Shown here piece by piece: positions 40,445-54,261 of a stretch of 64,000 bases of DNA. Position 1 is the first letter of the stretch. Every line of letters begins with the position of its first letter. The position numbers were made by a program, and so were the translations under genes. Origin of the DNA: Myxococcota bacterium (lineage in GTDB: Bacteria > Myxococcota_A > SURF-8); contig CAXXQS010000001.1 of NCBI GenBank assembly GCA_963674735.2, forward strand, positions 832,001 to 896,000. Direction: 5' to 3'. Below the pieces are notes generated by a model, which saw only the letters and a program-made list of their open reading frames with translations, had not been told where the DNA came from and made no database searches.

Positions 40445-41339
40445 AAATCTGCGCCGATCCTGAAAAATCCGCTCCAAGGTCCGGTGGCTTGCCGGGACTT
40501 CTTGGCTGTGCCTGAAATACGGATTGGTTTCCGCACGATGTGATTGGATTCACTCGACTATTTATTGCAAAAGCCTCCCTTGTCGATCGCGTTGGCGACT
40601 TTACTTCTTCTAACCGAATTTTAAATACACGTTGGGGCTGGATTCGTGTATGATACTTCGCCAAAATGACGATCTGGCGGGGAGGGAGTGTCTACCGAAA
40701 CGAAAGGCGCGGATTTTCGCGAATGTTTGCAATAACCCCCATGTTTTCTTCGACGGATAAACAAGAACGGCCGATCACCGATCGGCAGTGACAAAAATCC
40801 TTGTGAGCGGTGTTGATTCTCAGAAGGTATCATGTGAAGGATGTGGGAAATGAGCCAGATGGAGAATGATCGCAAAAATCGTCCCGACTCCCTTGAGGCA
40901 GTCCGGGGAAGCGTGGCCGACAAAGAAAATGAAAAGGTTCGGAGCGTTGGGCAACTGCCGTTCGGACGATTTTTCACGGCGATGATTTCGGAGAGTCGGT
41001 CAGGTACCGAAAAAAATGGAGAATCATCCGTGAATATGCGCAACGACAGGCTTCCGGCGGTTGAAACTTCGGATGCCGAATCCGAGGCTGAGTCAGAATG
41101 TGCTATCTCATTTCAACACAAAAGCGAAAAAAACAAGTGAATTCCGTTCATTAAGATTCTCAGTATACCAAAATGGTAAAAATAAGTTGTCTCTTTTCAG
41201 TAAAAGCAGCTATCCGCTAAAGGCTCATAACTGCATGAAAATAAAGGATAATAATTGTTTTAAACGAGTTGGCGCGAACTTTGCTATATGACAGAGCCCG
41301 TAGCGAGACGACACGGAAGTAGAGAACCTGGAGGAAGTG

Positions 41340-42410
41340 ATGAAACATCTTGGTGCACTAATCATAAATATCGTGATTATTTCATTAATGGCGATGGGGA
41401 CGAGTTCGTGTACGTCTCATGCCGATGCTTCTCTGGATAACAGGGCGGCAGACAGCGGTGCCGCGATTGTCGCGCCGGTCAACGTTAAAACCGAGGCGGT
41501 GGAATTCGGTCGTTTAACCGAATCCTTGCATGCCAGCGGTCAGACGATTGCCGATCGCGACGTTCTTCTGTCTGCCGAGACCGCCGGTCGCATCGAGCAT
41601 ATGGACGCCAAGCTGGGACAGCCGGTAAAAAAAGGGCAGGTGCTGGTGCGCATCGATTATGCCATGCTGAAAGCCCAGCGCGACCAAGCTCAGGCCAGCT
41701 TCAACCTGACGGAGAAAACCTTCAATCGTTTGAACCAGTTGCGCTCGGAGGAACTGGTCAGCCAGCAGAGCATCGATGAGGCCGAGTCCTCCATGATTCA
41801 AGCCAAAGCGATGCTGAAAATCGCCCAGGTCAACTTGAATCGCAGTGTTGTGCGTGCTACAACCGATGGTGTTATTACCGAAAAGCATGTCGAGAAGGGC
41901 GAATATGTCGGTCCTGGAACTCCACTGTTCCGCGTCGTGGACATCCGGCACATTGTCGTCACGGCGGATATTCCCGAAAGTAAAGTCGGGGCCATCAAGC
42001 CCGGGGCACCGGTTTCGGTACGACTCGACGCGCTCGGCCGTACGATCGAGAGTCGGGTGCAGGTTGTGCTTCCGGCCGCCCATCCGGCCAGCCGAACCTA
42101 TCAAATGCGCGTTCAGCTCGACAACTCCGACGGTCGCATCCTGGTGGGGATGGCGGCCAACCTCTCCATCACGCTCAAAACATATGAAGACGTGGTGGTG
42201 GCTTCTCAGGATGTGGTGCTCGAAGAAGAAAACGGACGTTCCGTTTTCGTGCGCGATGGCGACGTGGCCCGCAAGCGGGCGGTCTCTTTGGGGGCCGTGG
42301 ACGGCGATCGTGTGGTTCTGGTTGATGGCGTCGAGCAAGGCGACGAACTCATCGTCGTCGGCATGCGCGACTTGGTGGATGGCCAGCCGGTTCGTCTCGT
42401 TACCAATTAA
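41340..42410 (+). CDS. RND efflux periplasmic adaptor subunit
   Basis: Lipoyl halves (GRIE..GQPVKKGQVL; DGVITEKHVEKGEYV) around a helical hairpin. Confidence 0.92.
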   Translation: MKHLGALIINIVIISLMAMGTSSCTSHADASLDNRAADSGAAIVAPVNVKTEAVEFGRLTESLHASGQTIADRDVLLSAETAGRIEHMDAKLGQPVKKGQVLVRIDYAMLKAQRDQAQASFNLTEKTFNRLNQLRSEELVSQQSIDEAESSMIQAKAMLKIAQVNLNRSVVRATTDGVITEKHVEKGEYVGPGTPLFRVVDIRHIVVTADIPESKVGAIKPGAPVSVRLDALGRTIESRVQVVLPAAHPASRTYQMRVQLDNSDGRILVGMAANLSITLKTYEDVVVASQDVVLEEENGRSVFVRDGDVARKRAVSLGAVDGDRVVLVDGVEQGDELIVVGMRDLVDGQPVRLVTN

Positions 42411-42485
42411 AAAAAATTCCCGCCGATTTGGAAGGGGTTAGTGTATGCCCGGCCTCAAAGCCGGGCTTTTTAGGAGAATTCTCCC

Positions 42486-45400
42486 ATGAATATTACCGAG
42501 TTCGCTCTCCGGTTTCGCACCACGGTTTACGTCCTGATTTTGATGATCGTGATTGTCGGTGTGAATTCCTACCGCAGCATGCCGCTCGAAGACAATCCGG
42601 ACGTACAGATTCCCATCATTCTGGTGCAGACGATTTATCCCGGTGTCGCGCCCGAAGATATGGAAAAACTGGTTACCAACGTCACGGAACGAGAGCTCAA
42701 AGACCTTAAAGACGTGAAGAAAATGACGTCCACCAGCGCCGAATCGGTCTCGGTGGTGCAGATCGAGTTCGAAACCGGCGTGGACATGGACGATGCCTAT
42801 CAGAAGGTGCGCGACAAGGTGGATAAGGCGAAGCCCGATCTGCCCGACGACGCCGAAGATCCGATGCTGATCGAGATCAATATTTCCGAATTCCCCATTA
42901 TGCTGGTCAACGTTTCGGGTAATTACGGGTTGGTCAAGCTGAAGAAAGTCGCCGAAACGATTCAAGACCGCATCGAACAGATTCCGGGCGTATTGGGCGC
43001 GGATCTGACCGGCGGCGAAGAACGCGAAATCCAGATTTACCTGGACCCCAATCGTTTGCAGCATTACGAAGTCGGGATCGGGCAAGTGATCGGTCGCATC
43101 CAGGAGGAGCACCTCACGACGCCTGCCGGAAACATCGAGCTGGGCGGCAGCAAATATTCGGTGCGCATTCCCGGCGAATATTCCGATGTTTCCCTGATGG
43201 AAGATATCGTCGTGAAAGCGCCGGAAGGCAATCCCATCAAACTACGCGATATTGGAAGGGTCGTGGACGGATTCAAGGAGCGGCAGACCATTTCGCGCGC
43301 CAACGGGGCTGAATGTGTCACGCTGCGAGTGAAAAAACGCTCGGGCGAAAATGTGGTGCGTATTGCCGATTCGGTACGGGAAATCTTGAAGGATATGGAA
43401 TCGAGCTTACCTGCGGGCACCTCCTACACCATTCGGCAGGACAACAGCGAGGTGATTCGCAACACGGTGAACGACCTGGAAAACAACATCATCAGCGGCC
43501 TTCTGCTGGTTCTGATCGTCTTGTTCTTCGCCATGGGGCTGCGCAATGCTTCGTTTGTGGCGGTGGCCATTCCGCTTTCGATGCTCATCACGTTCATCGC
43601 GCTGCGCCTCATGGGTGTCACGCTCAATATGGTTGTGTTGTTCTCACTGATTCTCGCCTTGGGTATGTTGGTGGATAACTCGATTGTGGTTATCGAAAAT
43701 ATATACCGGCATGTTTCGGAAGGACGTCCGCGTTCGGTGGCGGCGCTTTTGGCCACCAAGGAGGTGGCCTGGCCCATCATCGCTTCGACGGCCACAACCG
43801 TTCTGGCCTTCGCTCCGATGCTTTTCTGGCCGGGGATCATGGGTGAATTCATGAGTTACCTACCCATGACGGTTATCACGGCGCTTCTAGCCTCTCTGTT
43901 TGTGGCGATGGTCATCAATCCGGTTGTCGCCTCCAATTTTCTTAAACCGGGCGGCAAGCGTTTGTTCGACGATTCCGGTGAAGTGAGCGGTCCCATTATT
44001 TCACGCTATAAACGTGTACTCATCTGGAGCCTCGACCACCCCAAAACCTTGATAGGGATAAGTAATGTCGTTTTGGTGGTGGTTATCATGGCTTACGGAA
44101 CGTTCGGGGCCGGGATCGAATTGTTCCCGACCACCACGCCGGAGCGGGCCCAGATCACCATCGAAGCGCCGCAAGGAACCGCGATCGAGCGTACCGACAG
44201 CTACATGCGCAAAGTCGAACAGATCGCCATGAGCGAGGACGGAACCGACGAGACTGTCGCGAACGTGGGCTATGCCGGTGGGATGCAGCTTTCAAGCGGC
44301 GGCAGCAATCCGCATCTGGCGGTGGCGGATATTGAGTTCAAGGATCGACACGAACGGACCCACAGTAGCTGGGATACCATCAAATCCATCCGCAAGGAAC
44401 TCGAAAAGCTGGCCGGTGCCGACTATAAAGTGGAGGTTCTAAAAGAGGGACCGCCCACCGGAGAACCGGTTTCGGTGGAAATCTCGGGACCGGATTTCAA
44501 CGTCGCCAACACGATCGCCCGCCAGGTCAAAGAACTGATTGCCACCATTCCCGGTGTTACCGACATCCAAGACGATTTCGAAGGTGGCAAGCCGGAAATC
44601 AAGATCGAGGTGGACCGCGAGCAGGCGATGTTGCGCAAGGTCAACACCATGACCATCTCCAACGCGGTGCGGGCCGCCATCAATGGCGTTGAGGCCAGCG
44701 TGCTGCGTGAAGGCGATGAGGAGTATGATATCGTCGTGCGCTACGACGAGCCATTCCGGAAGTCGATCAACGATATCCTCGATATTCGTGTGATGGGAAA
44801 AGACGACGTTCAGATTCCCCTGCGCGATGTGGCGAAGGTCAGCACCACGGGCGGATTGGGTTCGGTCAAGCATATCGATCAGAAACGCACGATCCTGGTC
44901 AGTGGCGATGTGATGGAACGCAGCTCGGCGGAAGTCATGATGGACGTCGAGAAACTGCTGAACGAGAAACTGACGTTGCCGCCGGGATATGTATTCCATT
45001 TCAGCGGAGAGAGTGAGGAACAGGAAAAAGCGGCTTCGTTTTTAGCTGAAGCTTTCGGAATCGGGATCATGCTGATGTTCATGGTGCTGATTACCCAGTT
45101 CAACTCGGTTCTGCGCCCCGCCATCATTCTCGGATCGGTTATTATGTCCATGATCGGCGTGCTGCTGGGCTTGATGATTACGCAGAACAAATTCGGGATC
45201 ATCATGACCGGAATGGGGGTGATTTCGCTTGCGGGAGTTGTCGTGAACAACGCGATCGTCCTGATCGACTACACCAATCTGCTGTGTACGCGTGATGGTT
45301 TGAGTTTACGCGATGCGCTTGTCCGAGCCGGTCTAGTACGCTTTCGCCCGGTTCTGCTGACTGCGATCACCACTATTCTGGGTATGTCACCCATGGCGCT

Positions 45401-45638
45401 CGGGGTCTCAATCGACTTCAAGAACTTCACCATCGATACGGGCGCTGTTTCCATGGAATACTGGGGACCCATGGCGCAGGCGGTGATCTTCGGTTTGAGC
45501 TTTGCGACCATCCTCACCCTGGTTATGGTGCCGGTGATGTATCTGACGCAGGAAAATTTCAGCAACTGGATCATAAAGCGACTTGGACTGAGCGAGCCGG
45601 ATGCGTTGCCTGCTGCGTCCGAGATGCACGAAGGATAA
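42486..45638 (+). CDS. RND efflux permease (AcrB/HAE1-like)
   Basis: 1050 aa; ALGMLVDNSIVVIENI, GVVVNNAIVL and RFRPVLLTA. Confidence 0.95.
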   Translation: MNITEFALRFRTTVYVLILMIVIVGVNSYRSMPLEDNPDVQIPIILVQTIYPGVAPEDMEKLVTNVTERELKDLKDVKKMTSTSAESVSVVQIEFETGVDMDDAYQKVRDKVDKAKPDLPDDAEDPMLIEINISEFPIMLVNVSGNYGLVKLKKVAETIQDRIEQIPGVLGADLTGGEEREIQIYLDPNRLQHYEVGIGQVIGRIQEEHLTTPAGNIELGGSKYSVRIPGEYSDVSLMEDIVVKAPEGNPIKLRDIGRVVDGFKERQTISRANGAECVTLRVKKRSGENVVRIADSVREILKDMESSLPAGTSYTIRQDNSEVIRNTVNDLENNIISGLLLVLIVLFFAMGLRNASFVAVAIPLSMLITFIALRLMGVTLNMVVLFSLILALGMLVDNSIVVIENIYRHVSEGRPRSVAALLATKEVAWPIIASTATTVLAFAPMLFWPGIMGEFMSYLPMTVITALLASLFVAMVINPVVASNFLKPGGKRLFDDSGEVSGPIISRYKRVLIWSLDHPKTLIGISNVVLVVVIMAYGTFGAGIELFPTTTPERAQITIEAPQGTAIERTDSYMRKVEQIAMSEDGTDETVANVGYAGGMQLSSGGSNPHLAVADIEFKDRHERTHSSWDTIKSIRKELEKLAGADYKVEVLKEGPPTGEPVSVEISGPDFNVANTIARQVKELIATIPGVTDIQDDFEGGKPEIKIEVDREQAMLRKVNTMTISNAVRAAINGVEASVLREGDEEYDIVVRYDEPFRKSINDILDIRVMGKDDVQIPLRDVAKVSTTGGLGSVKHIDQKRTILVSGDVMERSSAEVMMDVEKLLNEKLTLPPGYVFHFSGESEEQEKAASFLAEAFGIGIMLMFMVLITQFNSVLRPAIILGSVIMSMIGVLLGLMITQNKFGIIMTGMGVISLAGVVVNNAIVLIDYTNLLCTRDGLSLRDALVRAGLVRFRPVLLTAITTILGMSPMALGVSIDFKNFTIDTGAVSMEYWGPMAQAVIFGLSFATILTLVMVPVMYLTQENFSNWIIKRLGLSEPDALPAASEMHEG

Positions 45639-45642
45639 TAAG

Positions 45643-47004
45643 ATGAAAAGAAGAGAAACGAGCATGTGGAAACAACTGATTGTGGCGCTGGCAGTCGGAG
45701 CGGTGCTGATCGGGAATGCGGTCGCGGCCGAAAATGCCGAGGGAGATGTGGTGACGCTGGAGCAGGCCCAGCGTCTGGCTTTGGAACGCAACCCCTCGAT
45801 GAAAAATATCGGCGAGACCGTCTATCAGGCCAACGTGCTGATCTACCGAGCCTGGGCGATTTTGCTTCCCAATCTGAGTGCGTCGGGGTCCATCACGCGC
45901 AACAGCAGCGAGGCGGTATTGGCGTTTCCCGATTTCGAAGCTCAGCCCGATGCCAACGGCGACCTCCCCATGATTGAGACGGTGATGATGGAGAAATGGG
46001 CGAAGACCTTCGGGTTTACGGCCAACATGACGCTGTTCAACGCGCGTTCCATTCCCCTGCTCATGAATGCTTACGACAATGTGGATTACAGTAAAATGAG
46101 CGGTCGGCAATCGCGCAACGATCTGCTGTTGGCGGTGGCGGCGGCCTATTTTCAAGGGTATTCCGCGGAAGAAGCATTGGATGTGGCCCGGCGAAATCTG
46201 GAAAATGACGAGGAGTTTTTAAAACTTGCGCAAGCAAAAAAAGAGGTGGGGCAGGGGACCAAGATCGATGTTCTGCGAGCCGAAACGGCTTTGATGGATG
46301 CGGAAAAAGAGTTGAAAAACGCCGAGGATGCCGTCGAATTGTCCAAGACGGCGTTGGGTTACCTGATCGGCATTGAAGACGCTTTCACCATCACGAAACC
46401 TGAACCGGTCGAGCCGGTGGGAGGTGGGCTGGATGCCGTGGTCAGCAAGGCGATACGGGATCGCGAGGATTTGAAAGCGGCGCGTCTGGCGCGCACGATG
46501 GCCGAGCGCGACCGCATGGAGACCTGGACCAAGTGGGTTCCCAGTTTGGATGTCACATACAAGTGGGATTGGAACTCGGCGGCGGGTTTTTCCGGCGAGA
46601 AGGATAACTGGATGCTGATTTTCGGGGCCAACTGGAGCATCCTGGAGGGTGGTGGACGGATTGCCGAACTCTACGAACGGAAGTCCAAGGAGCGCATGGC
46701 GGGTAACAGCGCCGACCAGCTTGAACTGGATATCAAGGAATCGGTCGAAACGAATATGCTGGAAATGCAGAAAAGGCGCCGTAACGTGGAGTTGGCCGAC
46801 AAGCAGATCGCCTTGGCGGAAGAAACCCATCGGCTGATCACCCGCCAGTATGAGCTGGGCATGGCCACCAGCCTGGATGTCACCAACGCCTCGAACGATC
46901 TCTCCAACGTGCGTCGGGCGCGTATCCTGGAGCAGCTCCAGCTCGACATGGCGGCATTAATGCTCAATAAAGCGGCCGGTGAATACTACGAGATGTCTCG
47001 TTAG
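45643..47004 (+). CDS. TolC-family outer membrane efflux protein
   Basis: Signal peptide, TLEQAQRLALERNP, duplicated OEP repeats; third gene of the RND operon. Confidence 0.9.
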   Translation: MKRRETSMWKQLIVALAVGAVLIGNAVAAENAEGDVVTLEQAQRLALERNPSMKNIGETVYQANVLIYRAWAILLPNLSASGSITRNSSEAVLAFPDFEAQPDANGDLPMIETVMMEKWAKTFGFTANMTLFNARSIPLLMNAYDNVDYSKMSGRQSRNDLLLAVAAAYFQGYSAEEALDVARRNLENDEEFLKLAQAKKEVGQGTKIDVLRAETALMDAEKELKNAEDAVELSKTALGYLIGIEDAFTITKPEPVEPVGGGLDAVVSKAIRDREDLKAARLARTMAERDRMETWTKWVPSLDVTYKWDWNSAAGFSGEKDNWMLIFGANWSILEGGGRIAELYERKSKERMAGNSADQLELDIKESVETNMLEMQKRRRNVELADKQIALAEETHRLITRQYELGMATSLDVTNASNDLSNVRRARILEQLQLDMAALMLNKAAGEYYEMSR

Positions 47005-47310: not shown

Positions 47311-47934
47311 ATGGTTTCGACGCTAAGGAAACAGCGAGATCTCGACCGCAAGGAAAACACACGGCAGGATTTGCTCAACGCGGCCGTCGAGGTCTTTTGC
47401 GACAAGGGCTATCACAGCACCCTTATCTCCGACATTGTGGCGCAAGCGGGCGTAGGGCAGGGCACTTTCTATCGCTATTTCAACAGCAAACGTCACCTCA
47501 TCGATAACGTGATGGACCAGTTCGGTCAGTTGTTGCTCGATCAATTCGAGTCGATGACCATCAACCTACCCGGCAATGTCGATGAATACCGGGAAGCCAG
47601 CAAAAAAGCGCTGCTGGCGGTTGCCATGCTGGTTGAGAAAAATCGTAAACTCGCCCTGTTGCTGTTGCGCGAAGCCCCGACCGTCGATCGCGACTTCGAA
47701 CAGAGAATCAACGAGTTATACGACCAGTTCGCCAGCTTGGCCGCCTTTTACCTGGAATACGCGGTGACCGCTAAAATCGTCAGGGAATGCAATACCGCCA
47801 TGGTGTCCCAAGCCATCGTGGGAATGGGGCTGCGGCATGTGACCTTGTGGCTGAGTGCCGATCCTGAAACCACGGATATTCACGAATTGATTAACGAGTT
47901 GGTGGATTTTGCCTTTTCCGGCCTGGGTGCATAG
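47311..47934 (+). CDS. TetR/AcrR family regulator
   Basis: LLNAAVEVFCDKGY..ISDIVAQAGVGQGTFYRYFNSK. Confidence 0.93.
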   Translation: MVSTLRKQRDLDRKENTRQDLLNAAVEVFCDKGYHSTLISDIVAQAGVGQGTFYRYFNSKRHLIDNVMDQFGQLLLDQFESMTINLPGNVDEYREASKKALLAVAMLVEKNRKLALLLLREAPTVDRDFEQRINELYDQFASLAAFYLEYAVTAKIVRECNTAMVSQAIVGMGLRHVTLWLSADPETTDIHELINELVDFAFSGLGA

Positions 47935-48072
47935 GGACGGATTGGAGCATTTTGCATGTTGGAAAGCCTGGATGTAACGAAATAAGACGGAGCCAGCAAG
48001 ATGACTGAGTTAAGCCAGTATCCCTTAGGACGACCTGATCTGAGTTTGTCGATCAATTCGAGACAAGGCATC

Positions 48073-51000
48073 ATGGAGAAACCCAGCATCCTCAAGGTTC
48101 AACGCACCTGCGTGCATGACGGTCCCGGCATCCGAACGACCATCTTTTTCCAGGGCTGCAATCTGTGCTGCGCTTGGTGCCAGAATCCCGAAGGTCTTTC
48201 GATCAAACCCGATAGGGAACCCGAAAACGACTATTCGATTTCCGATCTGGTGGAAATCGTACTGCGAGATAAGGACTATTATTCCCAAACCGGTGGGGGA
48301 GTGACGTTGAGCGGTGGCGACCCCCTGTTGCAGAGGCCGGACTGCCTGATTCCGTTCTTGCAAGTATTGAGAGAGGAGAATATCCACATCGCGGTCGAGA
48401 CCGCACTTCACGTCCCCACGACGCATGTCGAGAAACTGGCCCCGTATGTTTCCCTGTTTCTTGTCGACCTGAAAGTGGTGGGAGACGATGAACGCCACAA
48501 GAGACTGACACAACAAAGCAGCCGCTTGATCCATCGGAACATTAGAAAATTGATGGCTCTCAACGCGAATGTCAAATTCCGTATGGTGATGGTGCCGGGC
48601 CACAACGATGAAGATACCGACATCAAAGCGGCCGCCGAATTTCTGAAATCGGTCGGGCATGATTCGATCGAGTTATTGAAATACCACAATATGTACGAGG
48701 AAAAGGCCAAACGATTGGGATTGGAGCGGGAACCGCTGCAGATCACCAACGAGCAGGCTCTCGCATCGGTTCGACGGGCGGTCAAGCTGTTCGACACTTT
48801 GGCTATCAAAGCCGAATGCTTCGATTTGGATGCCTCACGGCATCAAGCCGTTTTTACGCAACGGGTCCACGACATCCAAAATGCCATCAGGGAAAGCGAT
48901 TTCCACCTGTGTTTCGAAGTGTCGCGATTGAAGACGGCTTTCTACAAGAAAAACGGTTTCGAACAACCGAGCCATATTCATCGCGCAAAACGCCTGAATC
49001 ATGTGCTGGCCAACAAGGAAATCATCGTTTATCCCGACGAGCTGCTGGTCGGCAATTTTACCTCGAAACGGCGTGGCTGTCAGGTGTGGGAAGAGCATCA
49101 CGGTGTTCTTTTGGCTTCGATCTTTCATCAGATCGATCATCAGGAACCGATCCCGTTCAAATGTTCCTGGAAGGACCGAATTCATTTCTATCGCGAAATC
49201 ATGCCGTTTTGGCTCAAGCATAGCCTTTTGAGGAAAGTTAATCCCAAGCTGAAAGACTTCATCATGTTGTTCGCGCGCAGTTCCGAGATGAATACCGGGT
49301 TCAATAACAACATGGCCTCGATCGCGCATTTTATCGTGAATTACGAACGCCTGCTTGAACTCGGAACGGTGGGTATCATCGAGGAAATCGAAACCAAGCG
49401 CAGAGAAAACCCGGAAAACAACCAGGCTTTTTACGATGGAGTGATTATCGCGCTGAAGGGGTTGGAGAGATTTGCCGAACGCTATGCCGACCGTTTAGCG
49501 AGTCTGAGCCGTGAGGAATCGAACGAGCATCGCCGCCGGGAGTTGCAGGAGATGGCCGACATCTGTCGCCATGTTCCCAAGTACCCGGCCCGCACGTATC
49601 ACGAAGCGTTACAGAGCATGATGCTTCTCCATATCGCGCTTTGTATCGAGTCTTTCGAAAACGCCGTCTCGCCCGGTCGCCTCGACCAGATTCTTTATCC
49701 GTATTACAAACGCGATAAAGAAGCCGGGATCATCGACTATGAAAAGGCCAAAGAACTTCTGGCGTTGTTCATTCTCAAGATGGATGAAGCTCTTTTAGTC
49801 AACGATGGCAATACCTATCTGCGAATCGGACGGCTTTTCGAAACCATGTCGACGGACCAGACCGTTACCGCAGGTGGTCTTGGAAAAGACGGAAAGGACG
49901 CGACCAATGAGTTGACTTACGCGTTGCTGGATATCTGCGAGTTGCAACCTTACGCCGTAAACATGACGGCGCGTATTCACCCGGATAGCCCGGTGGAATA
50001 CCTGGACAGACTCGCGGAAGTCTACATAAACGGCTCGCCCATGCCCGCTTTGTACAACGATGAGCTTTACATCGAAACGCTTCGGAAGCATTACGATACC
50101 AGTGTGGAAGATGCCCGGAATTATGCCATCGTGGGATGCGTGGAACCCAACGCCTCAGACGATCATTACGGCAATACCGATTGCGCCAACATGAATGTGG
50201 TCCTACCGTTTTTGCAGGCTCTGAAAGGCGAAGAAGATGAGCTGTGGAACGTCGATGCTCCGGACCAAGTGGAAAAAATCACCAGCAAGTTTGTCGAGTA
50301 CAATTTCAGTGGCGATGGCAAGGCCGCTCGCCTCATTTCTTCCGGCTATGGGAAAGCGCGTAACCTGTATAAACGAATGCGGACATCCAAACCCAATCCG
50401 CCTGCGAACATGGATCAACTGCTGGAACGTTTTCAGCGGCGTTTGAACAGTCTGGCCAACTCGATTTTGGGCGATCATCAAAAAATCGAAAAAGCGATCC
50501 GAGAGAACTTCGCAACTCCTTTGGCATCCTCGCTTTCAAGAGGATCCATCGAAAGCGGTAAAGACGTCAACGAGGGCGGGGCGACTTTCAACAGCAGCGG
50601 CATTCAGGCGGTGGGAATCACGGATGTTGCGGATTCTCTACATGCCATCCACGAGGTTGTCTACCAGCGAAGGCTGTATTCGATTCAGGACATCATCGAC
50701 GCCATCGAGCATGATTTCGTCGGAGACGATTACGAGGCGATTAGAGACGTTTTGCTGGCCGTGCCGAAATTCGGTCAGGATGAATCGCAGGAGGCTGTCG
50801 ATTGGGTGAATCGAACCTTGCAGATCTACGTGAACGCCCTTGCGCAGGTTCCGAATTGTCCGAGAAACGGTATTTACACCGCTGGTTATTATGCTTTGAA
50901 TGTGAATGATGTTTACGGAAAGAAAACACCGGCGCTACCTTCCGGGAGACTGAAAGGCACCCCTTTGGCCAACAGCGTCGCTCCCCATTACGGGATGCAA

Positions 51001-51336
51001 GTCGCGGATCTGCTCTCGTCGCTGAACGCCGTCGCCGGAGTCGATTTTGCGAAATACGCTCCCAACGGCACGACGGTCACCTTCACGATCGACTCGGCCT
51101 TGTTCCAGGGGAAGGCCGGGGTTCGCAATCTTTCGAGCATCTTCAGCACGTTTTTCAAAAAAGGCGGCATGCAGTTTCAACCCAACGTCATTAGTCGGGA
51201 AATTTTGCTGGATGCTTACAACAATCCTGAAAAACATCCCTATCTGCTCGTGCGGGTTGCCGGCTATTGTGCGTATTTCAATCATCTCTCCGATGACTTG
51301 AAGAAAATCATCATAAACCGCACCTGTTACTGCTGA
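48073..51336 (+). CDS. Fused glycyl-radical activating enzyme (radical SAM) + glycyl radical enzyme
   Basis: N-terminal HDGPGIRTTIFFQGCNLCCAWCQNPE and GGVTLSGGD. Then ELLVGN, SPGRLDQ, IVGCVEP and LLVRVAGY in the same frame. Alternative start 48001. Confidence 0.9.
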   Translation: MEKPSILKVQRTCVHDGPGIRTTIFFQGCNLCCAWCQNPEGLSIKPDREPENDYSISDLVEIVLRDKDYYSQTGGGVTLSGGDPLLQRPDCLIPFLQVLREENIHIAVETALHVPTTHVEKLAPYVSLFLVDLKVVGDDERHKRLTQQSSRLIHRNIRKLMALNANVKFRMVMVPGHNDEDTDIKAAAEFLKSVGHDSIELLKYHNMYEEKAKRLGLEREPLQITNEQALASVRRAVKLFDTLAIKAECFDLDASRHQAVFTQRVHDIQNAIRESDFHLCFEVSRLKTAFYKKNGFEQPSHIHRAKRLNHVLANKEIIVYPDELLVGNFTSKRRGCQVWEEHHGVLLASIFHQIDHQEPIPFKCSWKDRIHFYREIMPFWLKHSLLRKVNPKLKDFIMLFARSSEMNTGFNNNMASIAHFIVNYERLLELGTVGIIEEIETKRRENPENNQAFYDGVIIALKGLERFAERYADRLASLSREESNEHRRRELQEMADICRHVPKYPARTYHEALQSMMLLHIALCIESFENAVSPGRLDQILYPYYKRDKEAGIIDYEKAKELLALFILKMDEALLVNDGNTYLRIGRLFETMSTDQTVTAGGLGKDGKDATNELTYALLDICELQPYAVNMTARIHPDSPVEYLDRLAEVYINGSPMPALYNDELYIETLRKHYDTSVEDARNYAIVGCVEPNASDDHYGNTDCANMNVVLPFLQALKGEEDELWNVDAPDQVEKITSKFVEYNFSGDGKAARLISSGYGKARNLYKRMRTSKPNPPANMDQLLERFQRRLNSLANSILGDHQKIEKAIRENFATPLASSLSRGSIESGKDVNEGGATFNSSGIQAVGITDVADSLHAIHEVVYQRRLYSIQDIIDAIEHDFVGDDYEAIRDVLLAVPKFGQDESQEAVDWVNRTLQIYVNALAQVPNCPRNGIYTAGYYALNVNDVYGKKTPALPSGRLKGTPLANSVAPHYGMQVADLLSSLNAVAGVDFAKYAPNGTTVTFTIDSALFQGKAGVRNLSSIFSTFFKKGGMQFQPNVISREILLDAYNNPEKHPYLLVRVAGYCAYFNHLSDDLKKIIINRTCYC

Positions 51337-51492
51337 GCTTCTCGTTTCAAGTTCCTTGCTCAAGCTTGCGAGGCTCCCGAAAGTCGGATTCATGCTGAAA
51401 GGACTTGATTTTTGGGTGACATTCGGAGATGCTTCCCGGGCGTTTTGATGTCCAGGAATGATGAAGAGTGTCGTCTCAGCGAGGAATAAACC

Positions 51493-52908
51493 ATGAAAAA
51501 CCGCCCCATCACGTTGACTGTTCTCTTGCCCGTTGCCGCTTTGATTTTATTTGCGGTTGGTTGCAACTCGGACGACGACGGCTCGGATGATGGCCCCGCT
51601 ACCGATGGGGACGTCGAATTCGATGGGGACATCGATAACGACGTGGATGGTGATAGGGAAGCGGAAGTGGAAGTCGAGGCGGAAACAGAAGCGGAAATCG
51701 TTTGTCGCGATTCGGTGGCGCCTCGCGAACTGGAGTATATGCCCGACGAGACGTTCGATCTCGGTCCCTACCTCATGCAACCGCAACAGACCAGCATCGT
51801 GGTCATGTGGCGCAGCGAAGAAGAAGAGGACGGGACCGTCTTCTATGGCCTGGACGACACACTCGATCTGTCGGTTTCGCAGGACGGCGTTTTCAATATC
51901 CACGAAATCAAGCTGGAAGGGCTTACGGCGAACACGCGCTATCACTATCGGGTTCAGTCGGGCTCGCGCAGTTCCGAAGTCCATCATTTCATTACCGCTC
52001 CCGATTCCGAACAGGGGTTCAATATCACCATCTGGGGCGACAGCCAGAGCAATCCGGACACCTTTTCGCAGTTGGTCGATCACATGGTGGGTTTGAATCC
52101 TTATTTTGCGTTGGGCGTGGGTGATCACGTTTCAGAAGGGGGAGAATTTCCCCAATGGAAAGAACGTTTGTTCGGACCGGCGCGTGGTCTTTTCCACGAA
52201 GTCGGTTTTTATGCCGCCATCGGAAATCACGCTCGCAACCATCAAAATTGGTATGATTTGATGTCTTACCCGCACCCGGAGGACAATCCGCAGCATGAGT
52301 CGTTTTACAGCTTTACCTACGGTAACGCTTTCTTCTTGGTAATCGATACGGACAAGCCGTATTTCTCCATCGGTCCCGCCGAGACGGAGATTTCCACTTT
52401 CATCAAAGAGCAGGTGGCGTCACCTGAAGCGCAGGCAGCGAAATGGCGTTTCGCGATCAGTCATGTACCGGGTTATGCCGAAGCCTGGGGTGATGCTGTT
52501 TGTGAAAGCTATGGGGGCGATCTGGCTATTAGAGGTTGGCTGTATCCGATGTTGAACGAATATGGGTTCCACGCCCATTTCTCCGGTCATATGCACGGCT
52601 ACGAACGTGGCAAAAGCGATAACCTGGTGACGCTGATCACGGGTGGTGGAGGTGGTGGACTGGATGCCTGGTGTGTGGATCTGCCGGAAGTCTCGGTGGT
52701 GCAATACGTCCACCACCACCTGCACATGGAAGTCGGTTGCGATACAGTTCGGATTTCGGCCTACGACTTGGACGGGACGCTGTTCGATTGGGTGGAAATC
52801 ACGGCGGACGATTACGGCCAAATAATCGATGAGGGTCCGATGGAAAACCTGCCCGATCCGCCGATCGATCCCAATTCCCCGTCGGCTCCCGATACGGCGA
52901 AACTCTAA
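51493..52908 (+). CDS. Purple acid phosphatase-like metallophosphoesterase lipoprotein (FN3 + calcineurin-like)
   Basis: AVGC lipobox, GPYL, GD, GD, GNH, H and SGHMH metal motifs. Confidence 0.9.
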   Translation: MKNRPITLTVLLPVAALILFAVGCNSDDDGSDDGPATDGDVEFDGDIDNDVDGDREAEVEVEAETEAEIVCRDSVAPRELEYMPDETFDLGPYLMQPQQTSIVVMWRSEEEEDGTVFYGLDDTLDLSVSQDGVFNIHEIKLEGLTANTRYHYRVQSGSRSSEVHHFITAPDSEQGFNITIWGDSQSNPDTFSQLVDHMVGLNPYFALGVGDHVSEGGEFPQWKERLFGPARGLFHEVGFYAAIGNHARNHQNWYDLMSYPHPEDNPQHESFYSFTYGNAFFLVIDTDKPYFSIGPAETEISTFIKEQVASPEAQAAKWRFAISHVPGYAEAWGDAVCESYGGDLAIRGWLYPMLNEYGFHAHFSGHMHGYERGKSDNLVTLITGGGGGGLDAWCVDLPEVSVVQYVHHHLHMEVGCDTVRISAYDLDGTLFDWVEITADDYGQIIDEGPMENLPDPPIDPNSPSAPDTAKL

Positions 52909-53002: not shown

Positions 53003-53329
53003 TTACTGATCGACGGAAAACAGATAACCGATGCTACGAACCGATTTGATGCGACGAGGAAAACGACCGCTGTCGTTTAATATTTTGCGAAGCTGGCAAA
53101 TTCTGAGGTCGATGGAACGGTCGTAGCCATTGTAGTTAATCCCACGAACTTCTTGGTACAATTGGTCCCGGCTGAGTACGCATCCCGCATTTTTAGCTAA
53201 ATATGACAAGAGATCGAATTGCCCGGAGGTCAACTCCAGTTGGACTTCGTTTAGTGTCGCAGTCCGACTATGAAAGGAAATGTGGAGCCCTCCGAGCGTG
53301 AGGTTCTGGTCTTTCATGAGATCCTGCAT
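53003..53329 (-). CDS. Stand-alone OmpR/PhoB winged-helix DNA-binding domain (RstA-like), no receiver
   Basis: LTSGQFDLL..LSRDQL..RGINYNGYDRSIDLRI..IKSVRSIGYLF. Confidence 0.7.
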   Translation of the reverse strand: MQDLMKDQNLTLGGLHISFHSRTATLNEVQLELTSGQFDLLSYLAKNAGCVLSRDQLYQEVRGINYNGYDRSIDLRICQLRKILNDSGRFPRRIKSVRSIGYLFSVDQ

Positions 53330-53685: not shown

Positions 53686-54261
53686 ATGGCAATTGGTGCG
53701 ATTGACAGCAGCATGGCGAACATGCAACAAATGGTGCAGATGAGTCAGGCCAGCCGGGCGCAGCGGTTCGAAAGAGCGGACAGCAATGGAGATGGGGGGA
53801 TCGACAAAACCGAGTTGTCTGGCGTAACGGTTCACATTGAAGAAATGTCGGGGCAATCTATCGATGTAGAGGCGCTTATCAGCGAGAATGATGCCGACAA
53901 TGATGGACTGCTCAATGAGGACGAGATGGAACAGGCGATGACCAGTCTTCGTGAGAGCATGCCGGAACCTTCTTTCAGTGGTGCGCCGTCGATGGGCGGT
54001 GCTCCACCGATGGGCGGTGGCCCGCCGATGGGAGGTGCTCCACCGATGGGAGAAGAATCGGGCGCGGCGTCCGGAGTCGAGAGTGACGAGGAAGACAGCT
54101 ATTCCCTCCTGGATATCTATGCCAGCTTGACTGAGGAAGCGGAAGAGAGCGAAAGCTCGATTGTGGATCTTCTCTACAATTCCAATGCGTTGGCCAGCTA
54201 TTCCTCAGTCGAAAACGCCATGGTTCAGATCTGGGGAACGAAGCTGGATTTAGAAAGCTGA
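53686..54261 (+). CDS. EF-hand calcium-binding protein with GG(A/G)PPM repeats
   Basis: DSNGDGGIDKTE and DADNDGLLNEDE loops; AAGGAGG RBS. Confidence 0.85.
   Translation: MAIGAIDSSMANMQQMVQMSQASRAQRFERADSNGDGGIDKTELSGVTVHIEEMSGQSIDVEALISENDADNDGLLNEDEMEQAMTSLRESMPEPSFSGAPSMGGAPPMGGGPPMGGAPPMGEESGAASGVESDEEDSYSLLDIYASLTEEAEESESSIVDLLYNSNALASYSSVENAMVQIWGTKLDLES

Follow-up and report, generated by a model that had tools for sequence, protein, structure and literature searches.

An old and widespread fusion of a glycyl radical enzyme with a radical-SAM activase in uncultured anaerobes

Glycyl radical enzymes (GREs) are activated when their buried Gly loop swings out into a separate activating enzyme (AE, or activase); the complex of the two is transient and the activase sub-stoichiometric, which makes the activation step hard to study. 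The activases of the 1,2-propanediol and glycerol dehydratases are separate proteins as well, and to our knowledge the AE-GRE complex is still unsolved beyond the peptide-bound activase. The gene considered here lies in a 64,000-nucleotide stretch (the window, in which all positions are counted from its first letter) of the genome assembly of a Myxococcota bacterium (GenBank GCA_963674735.2, contig CAXXQS010000001.1, positions 832,001 to 896,000 of the forward strand), and it encodes a GRE and its putative radical S-adenosylmethionine (SAM) activase in one polypeptide. The fusion is genuine and ancient and occurs widely among uncultured anaerobes, and the enzyme probably activates itself.

In a paper from 2014 the structure of the complex of pyruvate formate-lyase (PFL) with its activase, PFL-AE, was recorded as unknown (PMC4034769). 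A GRE review of 2026 treats AEs as separate enzymes and states that the vast majority of GRE-AEs bear a ferredoxin-like domain of unknown function, PFL-AE and the AE of ribonucleotide reductase (RNR) being the exceptions (PMC13450708); the words 'fused' and 'fusion' are absent from it. Engineered PFL fusions pair PFL with other proteins and not with its activase (PMC9850924). Natural fusions have been reported for eukaryotic class III RNR, namely the NrdD-NrdG fusions of Lundin et al. (2010), which are explained there as helping a transferred operon to become fixed (PMC3019208). Full-text literature searches gave no natural PFL-type AE-GRE fusion; subscription papers and supplements might mention one.

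The fused gene, its relatives and its history

The gene is a single stop-free open reading frame (ORF) on the + strand, 48001-51336, of 1111 amino acids (aa). An internal ATG at 48073, taken as the start in the preliminary description of this locus, gives 1087 aa without a stop, in agreement with the length of about 1090 aa claimed there, and residue numbering throughout counts from it. The start codon, 48001 or 48073, is ambiguous, because the segment ahead of the first conserved residues differs in length and sequence among 18 relatives.

Protein relatives were drawn from a 5.8-billion-protein collection. At least 120 were listed, 1040-1139 aa long and 69-100% identical, and all of them carry PF04055, PF02901, and PF01228 together. 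The preliminary description would have been contradicted by close homologues that were all split; every one of those listed is fused, and the best full-length non-fused representatives are at most 38% identical to the fused protein. Additionally, a scan of one genome per prokaryote species gave 124 relatives, of which 80 loci at 54-81% identity were kept. The junction is spanned by a single stop-free tblastn alignment in 79 of these 80 loci; the eightieth, L080, starts at residue 311, where its contig ends. By record title 75 of the loci are from Bacteria and five from Archaea, all in metagenome-assembled genomes (MAGs). The search for this architecture and its spread, proposed at the outset, points to a conserved and not an accidental fusion. 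The labels are Thermodesulfobacteriota (24 loci), Bacillota (14), Myxococcota (13), Spirochaetota (11), Bdellovibrionota (3), Promethearchaeota (2), and Sigynarchaeota, Hadarchaeota, Bacteroidota, and Pseudomonadota (one locus each), with nine loci lacking a phylum label; the family occurs in MAGs of Syntrophia, Spirochaetota, Clostridia, and Asgard archaea.

The read check at the junction that had been suggested revealed neither a stop nor an indel. Two Logan contigs, X1 (21,056 bases, covering 47900-51400) and X2 (12,216 bases, covering 47900-50913), bridge the junction without a single difference or indel; both are from one sample, possibly the window's own source, and were counted as weak support. 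Contig X3, from another study, covers just 49145-51400 and falls short of the junction, and the pieces of X4, 48594-48823 and 48849-49077, do not meet across it. The stretch was not found among RNA runs, a result that carries no weight either way.

Split forms were sought with residues 1-258 as a query for shorter proteins, which gave at least 120 listed matches, of which 16 were inspected. Most of the inspected matches of at least 55% identity carry partial GRE sequences or out-of-family tails, which marks them as fragments or frameshifts. Two of the 16 inspected proteins, P0306 (264 aa, 50% identity) and P0364 (246 aa, 43%), appear to be true stand-alone activases without the ferredoxin-like insert.

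When clustered at 50% identity the close family has one full-length representative, P0015. The next full-length fusions, P0123 (40% identity) and P0127 (35%), each have a dicluster ferredoxin insert in the activase, and seven further long GREs that were inspected have no radical-SAM domain. Within the window's phylum, 301 genomes were searched with a junction-spanning piece (residues 150-400), and 15 of them, the window's own included, gave a match (4/5 within the window's own family). Where the match is complete, the open frame measures 1092-1349 aa; identity drops to 31-48% in two other families. Nine of these genes were fetched; L097-L100 and L102 are fused and lack the insert, and L101 is fused and carries an insert with eight cysteines.

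In a tree of the GRE domain (67 rows) all 22 insert-less fusions form one clade with a Shimodaira-Hasegawa-like approximate likelihood ratio test (SH-aLRT) support of 100 and a long stem of 0.68. Nearest to it are three fusions of the rarer, insert-bearing kind and the apparently split P0130, together a clade of 26 rows with a support of 99. In a tree of the activase domain (52 rows) the same 22 fusions and the stand-alone P0306 form one clade with a support of 99, divided into the same two subclades. The agreement of the two trees indicates that both domains have evolved together since one fusion event. In the activase tree the fused activase sits among the ferredoxin-bearing GRE-AEs, hence the insert was probably lost. 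In the simplest history the activase would still have borne its insert when it was fused and would have lost it afterwards, with rare later splits, an order of events that we infer from the two trees.

It is also worth mentioning that a Sigynarchaeum-labelled Asgard MAG (G002, the genome of L072) has two fused copies, on its contigs C205 and C265, in frames of 1129 and 1117 aa. GREs extended at the N-terminus also form a different clade, represented in the window's own genome by the paralog L001 (G000:C2:121759-126708, an open frame of 1013 aa), which groups with the GREs P0178, P0161, and P0165 of about 1000 aa. The first ~210-240 residues of these proteins match no Pfam family, and the extension is not an activase. 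Yet another GRE, P0141 of 939 aa, has an SCP2 sterol-transfer-like domain at its N-terminus, a hint of a lipid-like substrate or carrier.

Domains of the fused protein

The chain begins with a radical-SAM activase of the PFL-AE type that lacks the ferredoxin insert; a linker of 17 residues joins it to a complete GRE of the PFL2/dehydratase type. Pfam recognizes Radical_SAM at residues 24-181 (1.4e-17) and Fer4_12 at 16-143, followed by PFL-like from residue 263 (3.8e-138) and Gly_radical at 966-1070 (3.9e-20). The motifs quoted in the preliminary description are all found in the translation: HDGPG (residues 15-19), CNLCCAWC, GGVTLSGGD, GCVEP (with C689), and RVAGY (with G1064).

The activase domain passes the cutoff of the NCBIfam GRE-activase model TIGR02494 (211.6 bits against 174.35). 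The match is split into two stretches and skips profile positions ~41-103, the ferredoxin-like insert, and the compact, insert-less activase initially read from the sequence is thereby confirmed. Residues 14-219 are colinear with residues 14-216 of the solved E. coli PFL-AE. Between zero and two cysteines follow the cluster motif in all 22 sampled members of the insert-less clade, versus eight in the ferredoxin-bearing forms; the 8-Cys ferredoxin-like insert of ~60 residues usual in GRE-AEs is thus absent from the fused activase. The equivalog models of PFL-AE itself were missed (TIGR02493, 154.8 versus 231.75 bits; PRK11145, 106 versus 375). The NrdG models scored 45-51 bits versus cutoffs of 126-131, which places the protein outside the NrdDG type, its GRE being of the PFL2 type.

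Conservation was measured in an alignment of 74 full-length members; a further alignment of 40 rows, A1, includes two distant fusions. The cysteines C29, C33, and C36 are invariant in 74/74 members and in A1; DGxGxR and GGxTxSGG are either invariant or conserved to at least 98% among the 74 members. Mean column identity in the latter is 0.73 in the activase, 0.61 in the linker, 0.77 and 0.79 in the two GRE parts, and 0.60 in the insertion described below. The linker is free of indels, with gap counts of 0-1 over residues 225-275 in the 74 sequences, and its F261 is invariant. The state of the activase motifs and a conservation level near that of the GRE argue that the domain is neither dead nor decaying; to judge from its sequence, it is probably a radical-SAM activase capable of catalysis, which has one [4Fe-4S] cluster but lacks a ferredoxin domain. 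The 41 nucleotides (nt) over the cluster-motif codons, 48118-48158, match contigs of other organisms in three runs at 90-95%; this stretch is no repeat of the window's genome but a DNA word conserved among radical-SAM genes.

The GRE domain has the hallmarks of its superfamily, i.e., the barrel fold, a mid-barrel Cys loop, and a C-terminal RVxG[FWY] Gly loop. GCVEP is at least 98% conserved in the 74 members, G1064 is invariant both there and in A1, and H419 and T702/D703 are invariant or at least 98% conserved in the 74 members. The closest model is TIGR01774, the PFL2/glycerol-dehydratase subfamily, yet its score of 507 lies below the cutoff of 678. None of the NCBIfam equivalog models of characterised GREs (eliminases, decarboxylases) came near its cutoff: HpfG (348 versus 1000), HpsG (344 versus 1000), PflD (PRK09983, 343 versus 1109), HypD (337 versus 1100), and CutC (303 versus 1050) were all missed. 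Pyruvate formate-lyase has two adjacent catalytic cysteines; the GCVEP loop has a single Cys, and the PFL model TIGR01255 scored 129.5 bits versus its cutoff of 994.2.

When the domain is aligned with the diol dehydratase structure 5i2a, C689/E691, H419, and D703 fall on C438/E440, H166, and D452, the thiyl site, general base, and substrate-binding residues of these enzymes. The H283/S284 pair of 5i2a, which belongs to the ESSGHS segment and contacts the diol, is replaced by N530/A531; in A1 N530 is invariant and A531 at least 90% conserved. The GRE domain appears to belong to the PFL2/1,2-eliminase (dehydratase/lyase) branch, and eliminase chemistry is predicted for it; since conserved substrate-contact positions differ, its substrate should differ from those of the characterised enzymes. 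As the clade lies outside the characterised assignments, it may attach a new anaerobic reaction to the family.

A further peculiarity of the GRE is an insertion of 35-40 residues after the Cys loop, for which helices are predicted by AlphaFold2 at 729-744 and 750-770. The segment corresponding to residues 708-780 is 63-79 aa long in 22/22 insert-less fusions, 28-30 aa in 3/3 ferredoxin-bearing fusions, and 21-46 aa in 41/42 split GREs, the exception being P0142 with 96. The gain of the GRE insertion and the disappearance of the ferredoxin domain from the activase appear to fall on one and the same branch.

The AlphaFold2 model of the whole chain, built from a 40-sequence alignment, has a mean predicted local distance difference test (pLDDT) score of 89.8 and a predicted template-modelling (TM) score (pTM) of 0.89. 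The pLDDT is 76-91 in the linker; where the insert is missing, at residues 46-50, it drops under 50, and confidence is otherwise low only at the last three residues. The GRE alone (825 of 1087 residues) could account for a pTM of ~0.76 at most, and the higher value means that in this model the activase appears to be set confidently on the GRE body. The best Foldseek matches are 5i2g, 9rco, 2f3o, and 1r8w, with a probability of 1.00 and target-normalised TM-scores of 0.86-0.93.

Self-activation and its alternatives

The fused enzyme is best considered an anciently fused single-polypeptide GRE system that would need no separately encoded activase, a reading that we regard as probable. The N-terminal domain would cleave SAM and take a hydrogen from G1064 of the C-terminal GRE domain, either on its own chain or on the partner chain of a dimer. 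The gene appears to travel independently of other genes, frequently with a GntR/FCD or TetR regulator of its own ahead of it, and to have moved between phyla and domains. Self-activation fits the invariant activase motifs, the co-divergence of the two domains, and the counts of GREs and activases in five further genomes (G029, G010, G248, G173, and G021). Each of these has exactly two Gly_radical matches and two activases above the TIGR02494 cutoff; in all five, one split GRE adjoins a stand-alone insert-bearing activase and the second pair is the fusion, which is the pattern expected if every GRE has its own activase.

Several observations weigh against self-activation. In 11 host genomes examined (G000-G005 and the five named above) the fusion was never the sole GRE or the sole activase. 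At least one stand-alone GRE activase is present in every one of them, so activation by another activase is possible. The window's genome has five GREs and three adjacent stand-alone activases, and one of its GREs, at C3:104208-105686, has no activase match on its contig, so the fused activase might also serve in trans. The window reads GGD where the family consensus is GGE. The stand-alone P0306 nests in the clade of fused activases, which implies that this activase type can occur unfused, and the trees themselves come from a quick search, with LG+G4 only, and are unrooted.

One alternative is that the fused activase acts mainly in trans for orphan GREs, the attached GRE being one client among others or activated by another AE. 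The C3 GRE would be such an orphan, and G001 has a surplus of GREs over activases, with matches at ~8 GRE loci, two stand-alone activases, and the fusion. No orphan GRE is left, however, in any of the five genomes with two GREs and two AEs, one pair adjacent and one fused, and the domains co-diverge with the same subclades and are held together by a linker of fixed length; we therefore consider mainly trans activity improbable. A second alternative regards the activase domain as a structural remnant that has lost its catalytic activity, with a stand-alone AE as the source of the radical. It could draw on the stand-alone AEs of all 11 host genomes and on the absence of the ferredoxin-like domain that most GRE-AEs have. 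It is very unlikely given the invariance or at least 98% conservation of C29/C33/C36, DGxGxR, and GGxTxSGG and a mean identity in the activase (0.73) near that of the GRE (0.77-0.79); moreover, PFL-AE and RNR-AE function without a ferredoxin domain, as the 2026 review states (PMC13450708). Hardly plausible is also the production of two separate proteins in the cell by post-translational cleavage or from an internal start, as codons 246-262 of the linker contain no in-frame ATG, GTG, or TTG, and the linker is fixed in length, moderately conserved, and modelled with a pLDDT of 76-91. An artefact of sequencing or assembly, in which a lost stop or a frameshift merged adjacent genes, was rejected outright, for although the out-of-family tails of some short family entries are what frameshifts in other assemblies would leave, 79/80 independent loci are stop-free across the junction, all of at least 120 listed relatives are fused, and two Logan contigs are without an indel.

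Self-activation can be extended, tentatively and with a greater chance of being wrong than right, to an activase permanently docked on its own GRE, one per catalytic subunit, which would re-install a quenched radical in cis; the GRE insertion linked to the ferredoxin loss would then be a docking or electron-entry surface. If docking is permanent, this would be a self-priming and self-repairing radical enzyme and a natural stoichiometric tethered AE-GRE complex. A natural fusion selected in many lineages offers in any case a 1:1 tethered system for cryo-electron microscopy and for cis-versus-trans kinetics and, if self-activation is true, a single-gene GRE for heterologous use. It also bears on the purpose of the activase ferredoxin domain, being an eliminase-branch activase without it, if functional; the coincidence of the loss of that domain with a new GRE insertion touches the same question.

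Gene neighbourhood and comparison with known systems

The features of the fused gene and of the genes upstream of it are collected in Table 1.

Table 1. Features of the fused gene and its upstream neighbours, in window positions.
Feature	Position	Strand	Remarks
HlyD-type membrane-fusion protein	41337-42407	+	
AcrB-type pump	42486-45635	+	
Outer-membrane factor	45601-47001	+	
TetR-family regulator	47311-47934	+	Pfam TetR_N 1e-15; 66 nt ahead of ATG 48001, same strand
Fused activase-GRE, whole ORF	48001-51336	+	Stop codon 51334-51336
Activase (radical SAM) domain	48073-48807	+	Residues 1-245; Pfam, TIGR02494, PFL-AE 8fo0/3c8f alignment
CX3CX2C motif C29/C33/C36	48157-48180	+	Ligands of the radical-SAM [4Fe-4S] cluster
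Short loop at the usual ferredoxin-like insert site	48193-48228	+	Residues 41-52
Fixed-length linker	48808-48858	+	Residues 246-262
GRE domain	48859-51333	+	Residues 263-1087; Pfam PFL-like and Gly_radical, Foldseek
Cys loop GCVEP	50134-50148	+	C689 thiyl site, E691; counterparts in 5i2a are C438/E440
Clade-specific insertion after the Cys loop	50203-50397	+	About residues 711-775, two predicted helices
Gly loop RVAGY	51253-51267	+	G1064, predicted radical site; Pfam Gly_radical 966-1070

Neighbouring genes of the family were compared by BLAST clustering of 1546 ORFs and by a Pfam census of the nearest neighbours, 60 of 62 upstream (the two longest upstream ORFs, of L032 and L064, being outside the census) and 65 of 65 downstream. 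The sole recurrent neighbour is an upstream regulator on the same strand, of the GntR/FCD type in 18/60 cases and of the TetR type in 5/60; the window itself has a TetR gene there. Downstream, every family is limited to at most 3 of the 65 neighbours of the census, and no separate activase stands beside the fused gene among the 60 upstream and 65 downstream neighbours. Scattered occurrences of Metallophos, GDPD, SDR, Fe-ADH, and MFS_2 are too few to name a substrate. A scan for promoters and terminators gave counts no higher than the shuffled expectation.

Directly upstream of the TetR gene of the window there is a complete tripartite resistance-nodulation-division (RND) efflux set (41337-47004, all on the + strand), and the TetR gene may belong to this pump rather than to the GRE. 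The G+C content of the fused gene (0.49-0.53 over 48000-51500) is lower than that of the genes at 44000-47000 (0.55-0.57), which would fit acquisition by transfer. The downstream gene, at 51493-52908 (+), encodes a metallophosphoesterase resembling purple acid phosphatases, whose N-terminus is hydrophobic and which contains an acidic stretch rich in D/E; elsewhere, metallophosphoesterases near the fused gene make up three of the 60 upstream neighbours and one BLAST cluster of five loci. Further downstream, a 107-aa ORF at 53003-53329 (-) consists of an OmpR-type DNA-binding domain alone, without a receiver domain, and adjoins a gene for a bacterial EF-hand protein at 53686-54261 (+).

Among known systems, the diol dehydratases (for 1,2-propanediol, 5i2a/5i2g, and 9rco; for glycerol, 1r8w) are the best matches of the GRE domain, with 309-337 bits and target-normalised TM-scores of 0.86-0.91. 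They share with it the Cys-x-Glu pair, the His, and the Asp (C689/E691, H419, and D703 in the fused enzyme). They are only ~26-29% identical to it, however, and the fused GRE has N530/A531 for their His-Ser and the additional insertion. PFL2 of Archaeoglobus fulgidus (2f3o; 331.6 bits, target-normalised TM-score 0.93, ~30% identity) resembles the fused GRE in having a Glu-x-Ala-type segment in place of the Gly-His-Ser of the diol dehydratases, but it has neither a fused activase nor the insertion after the Cys loop. On the activase side, E. coli PFL-AE (3c8f/3cb8, 8fo0) has the same CX3CX2C and DGPGIR motifs and likewise no ferredoxin domain; unlike the fused activase, it is a stand-alone protein of 245 aa.

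The preliminary description had set an inferred self-activating GRE against characterised GREs, whose activases are encoded separately. The architecture stands and proves to be conserved; its novelty is tempered by the many such proteins already in public databases and by two other kinds of fusion. Some members of the family are already named 'pyruvate-formate lyase/pyruvate-formate lyase-activating enzyme' by the Joint Genome Institute (JGI) pipeline. The ferredoxin-bearing AE-GRE fusions P0123, P0127, and L101 have the same domain order and are the nearest neighbours in the GRE tree, but they are 31-40% identical, carry the 8-Cys insert in the AE, and lack the insertion that follows the Cys loop, the corresponding segment being 28-30 aa long. 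The NrdD-NrdG fusions likewise unite a GRE and a radical-SAM activase in one ORF, but they differ in their RNR-class GRE, in the opposite domain order implied by the name NrdDG, and in their eukaryotic distribution (PMC3019208). Compared with all of these, the fused protein of the window is built of known domains, but in an arrangement that is unstudied although it is conserved and has been widely transferred.

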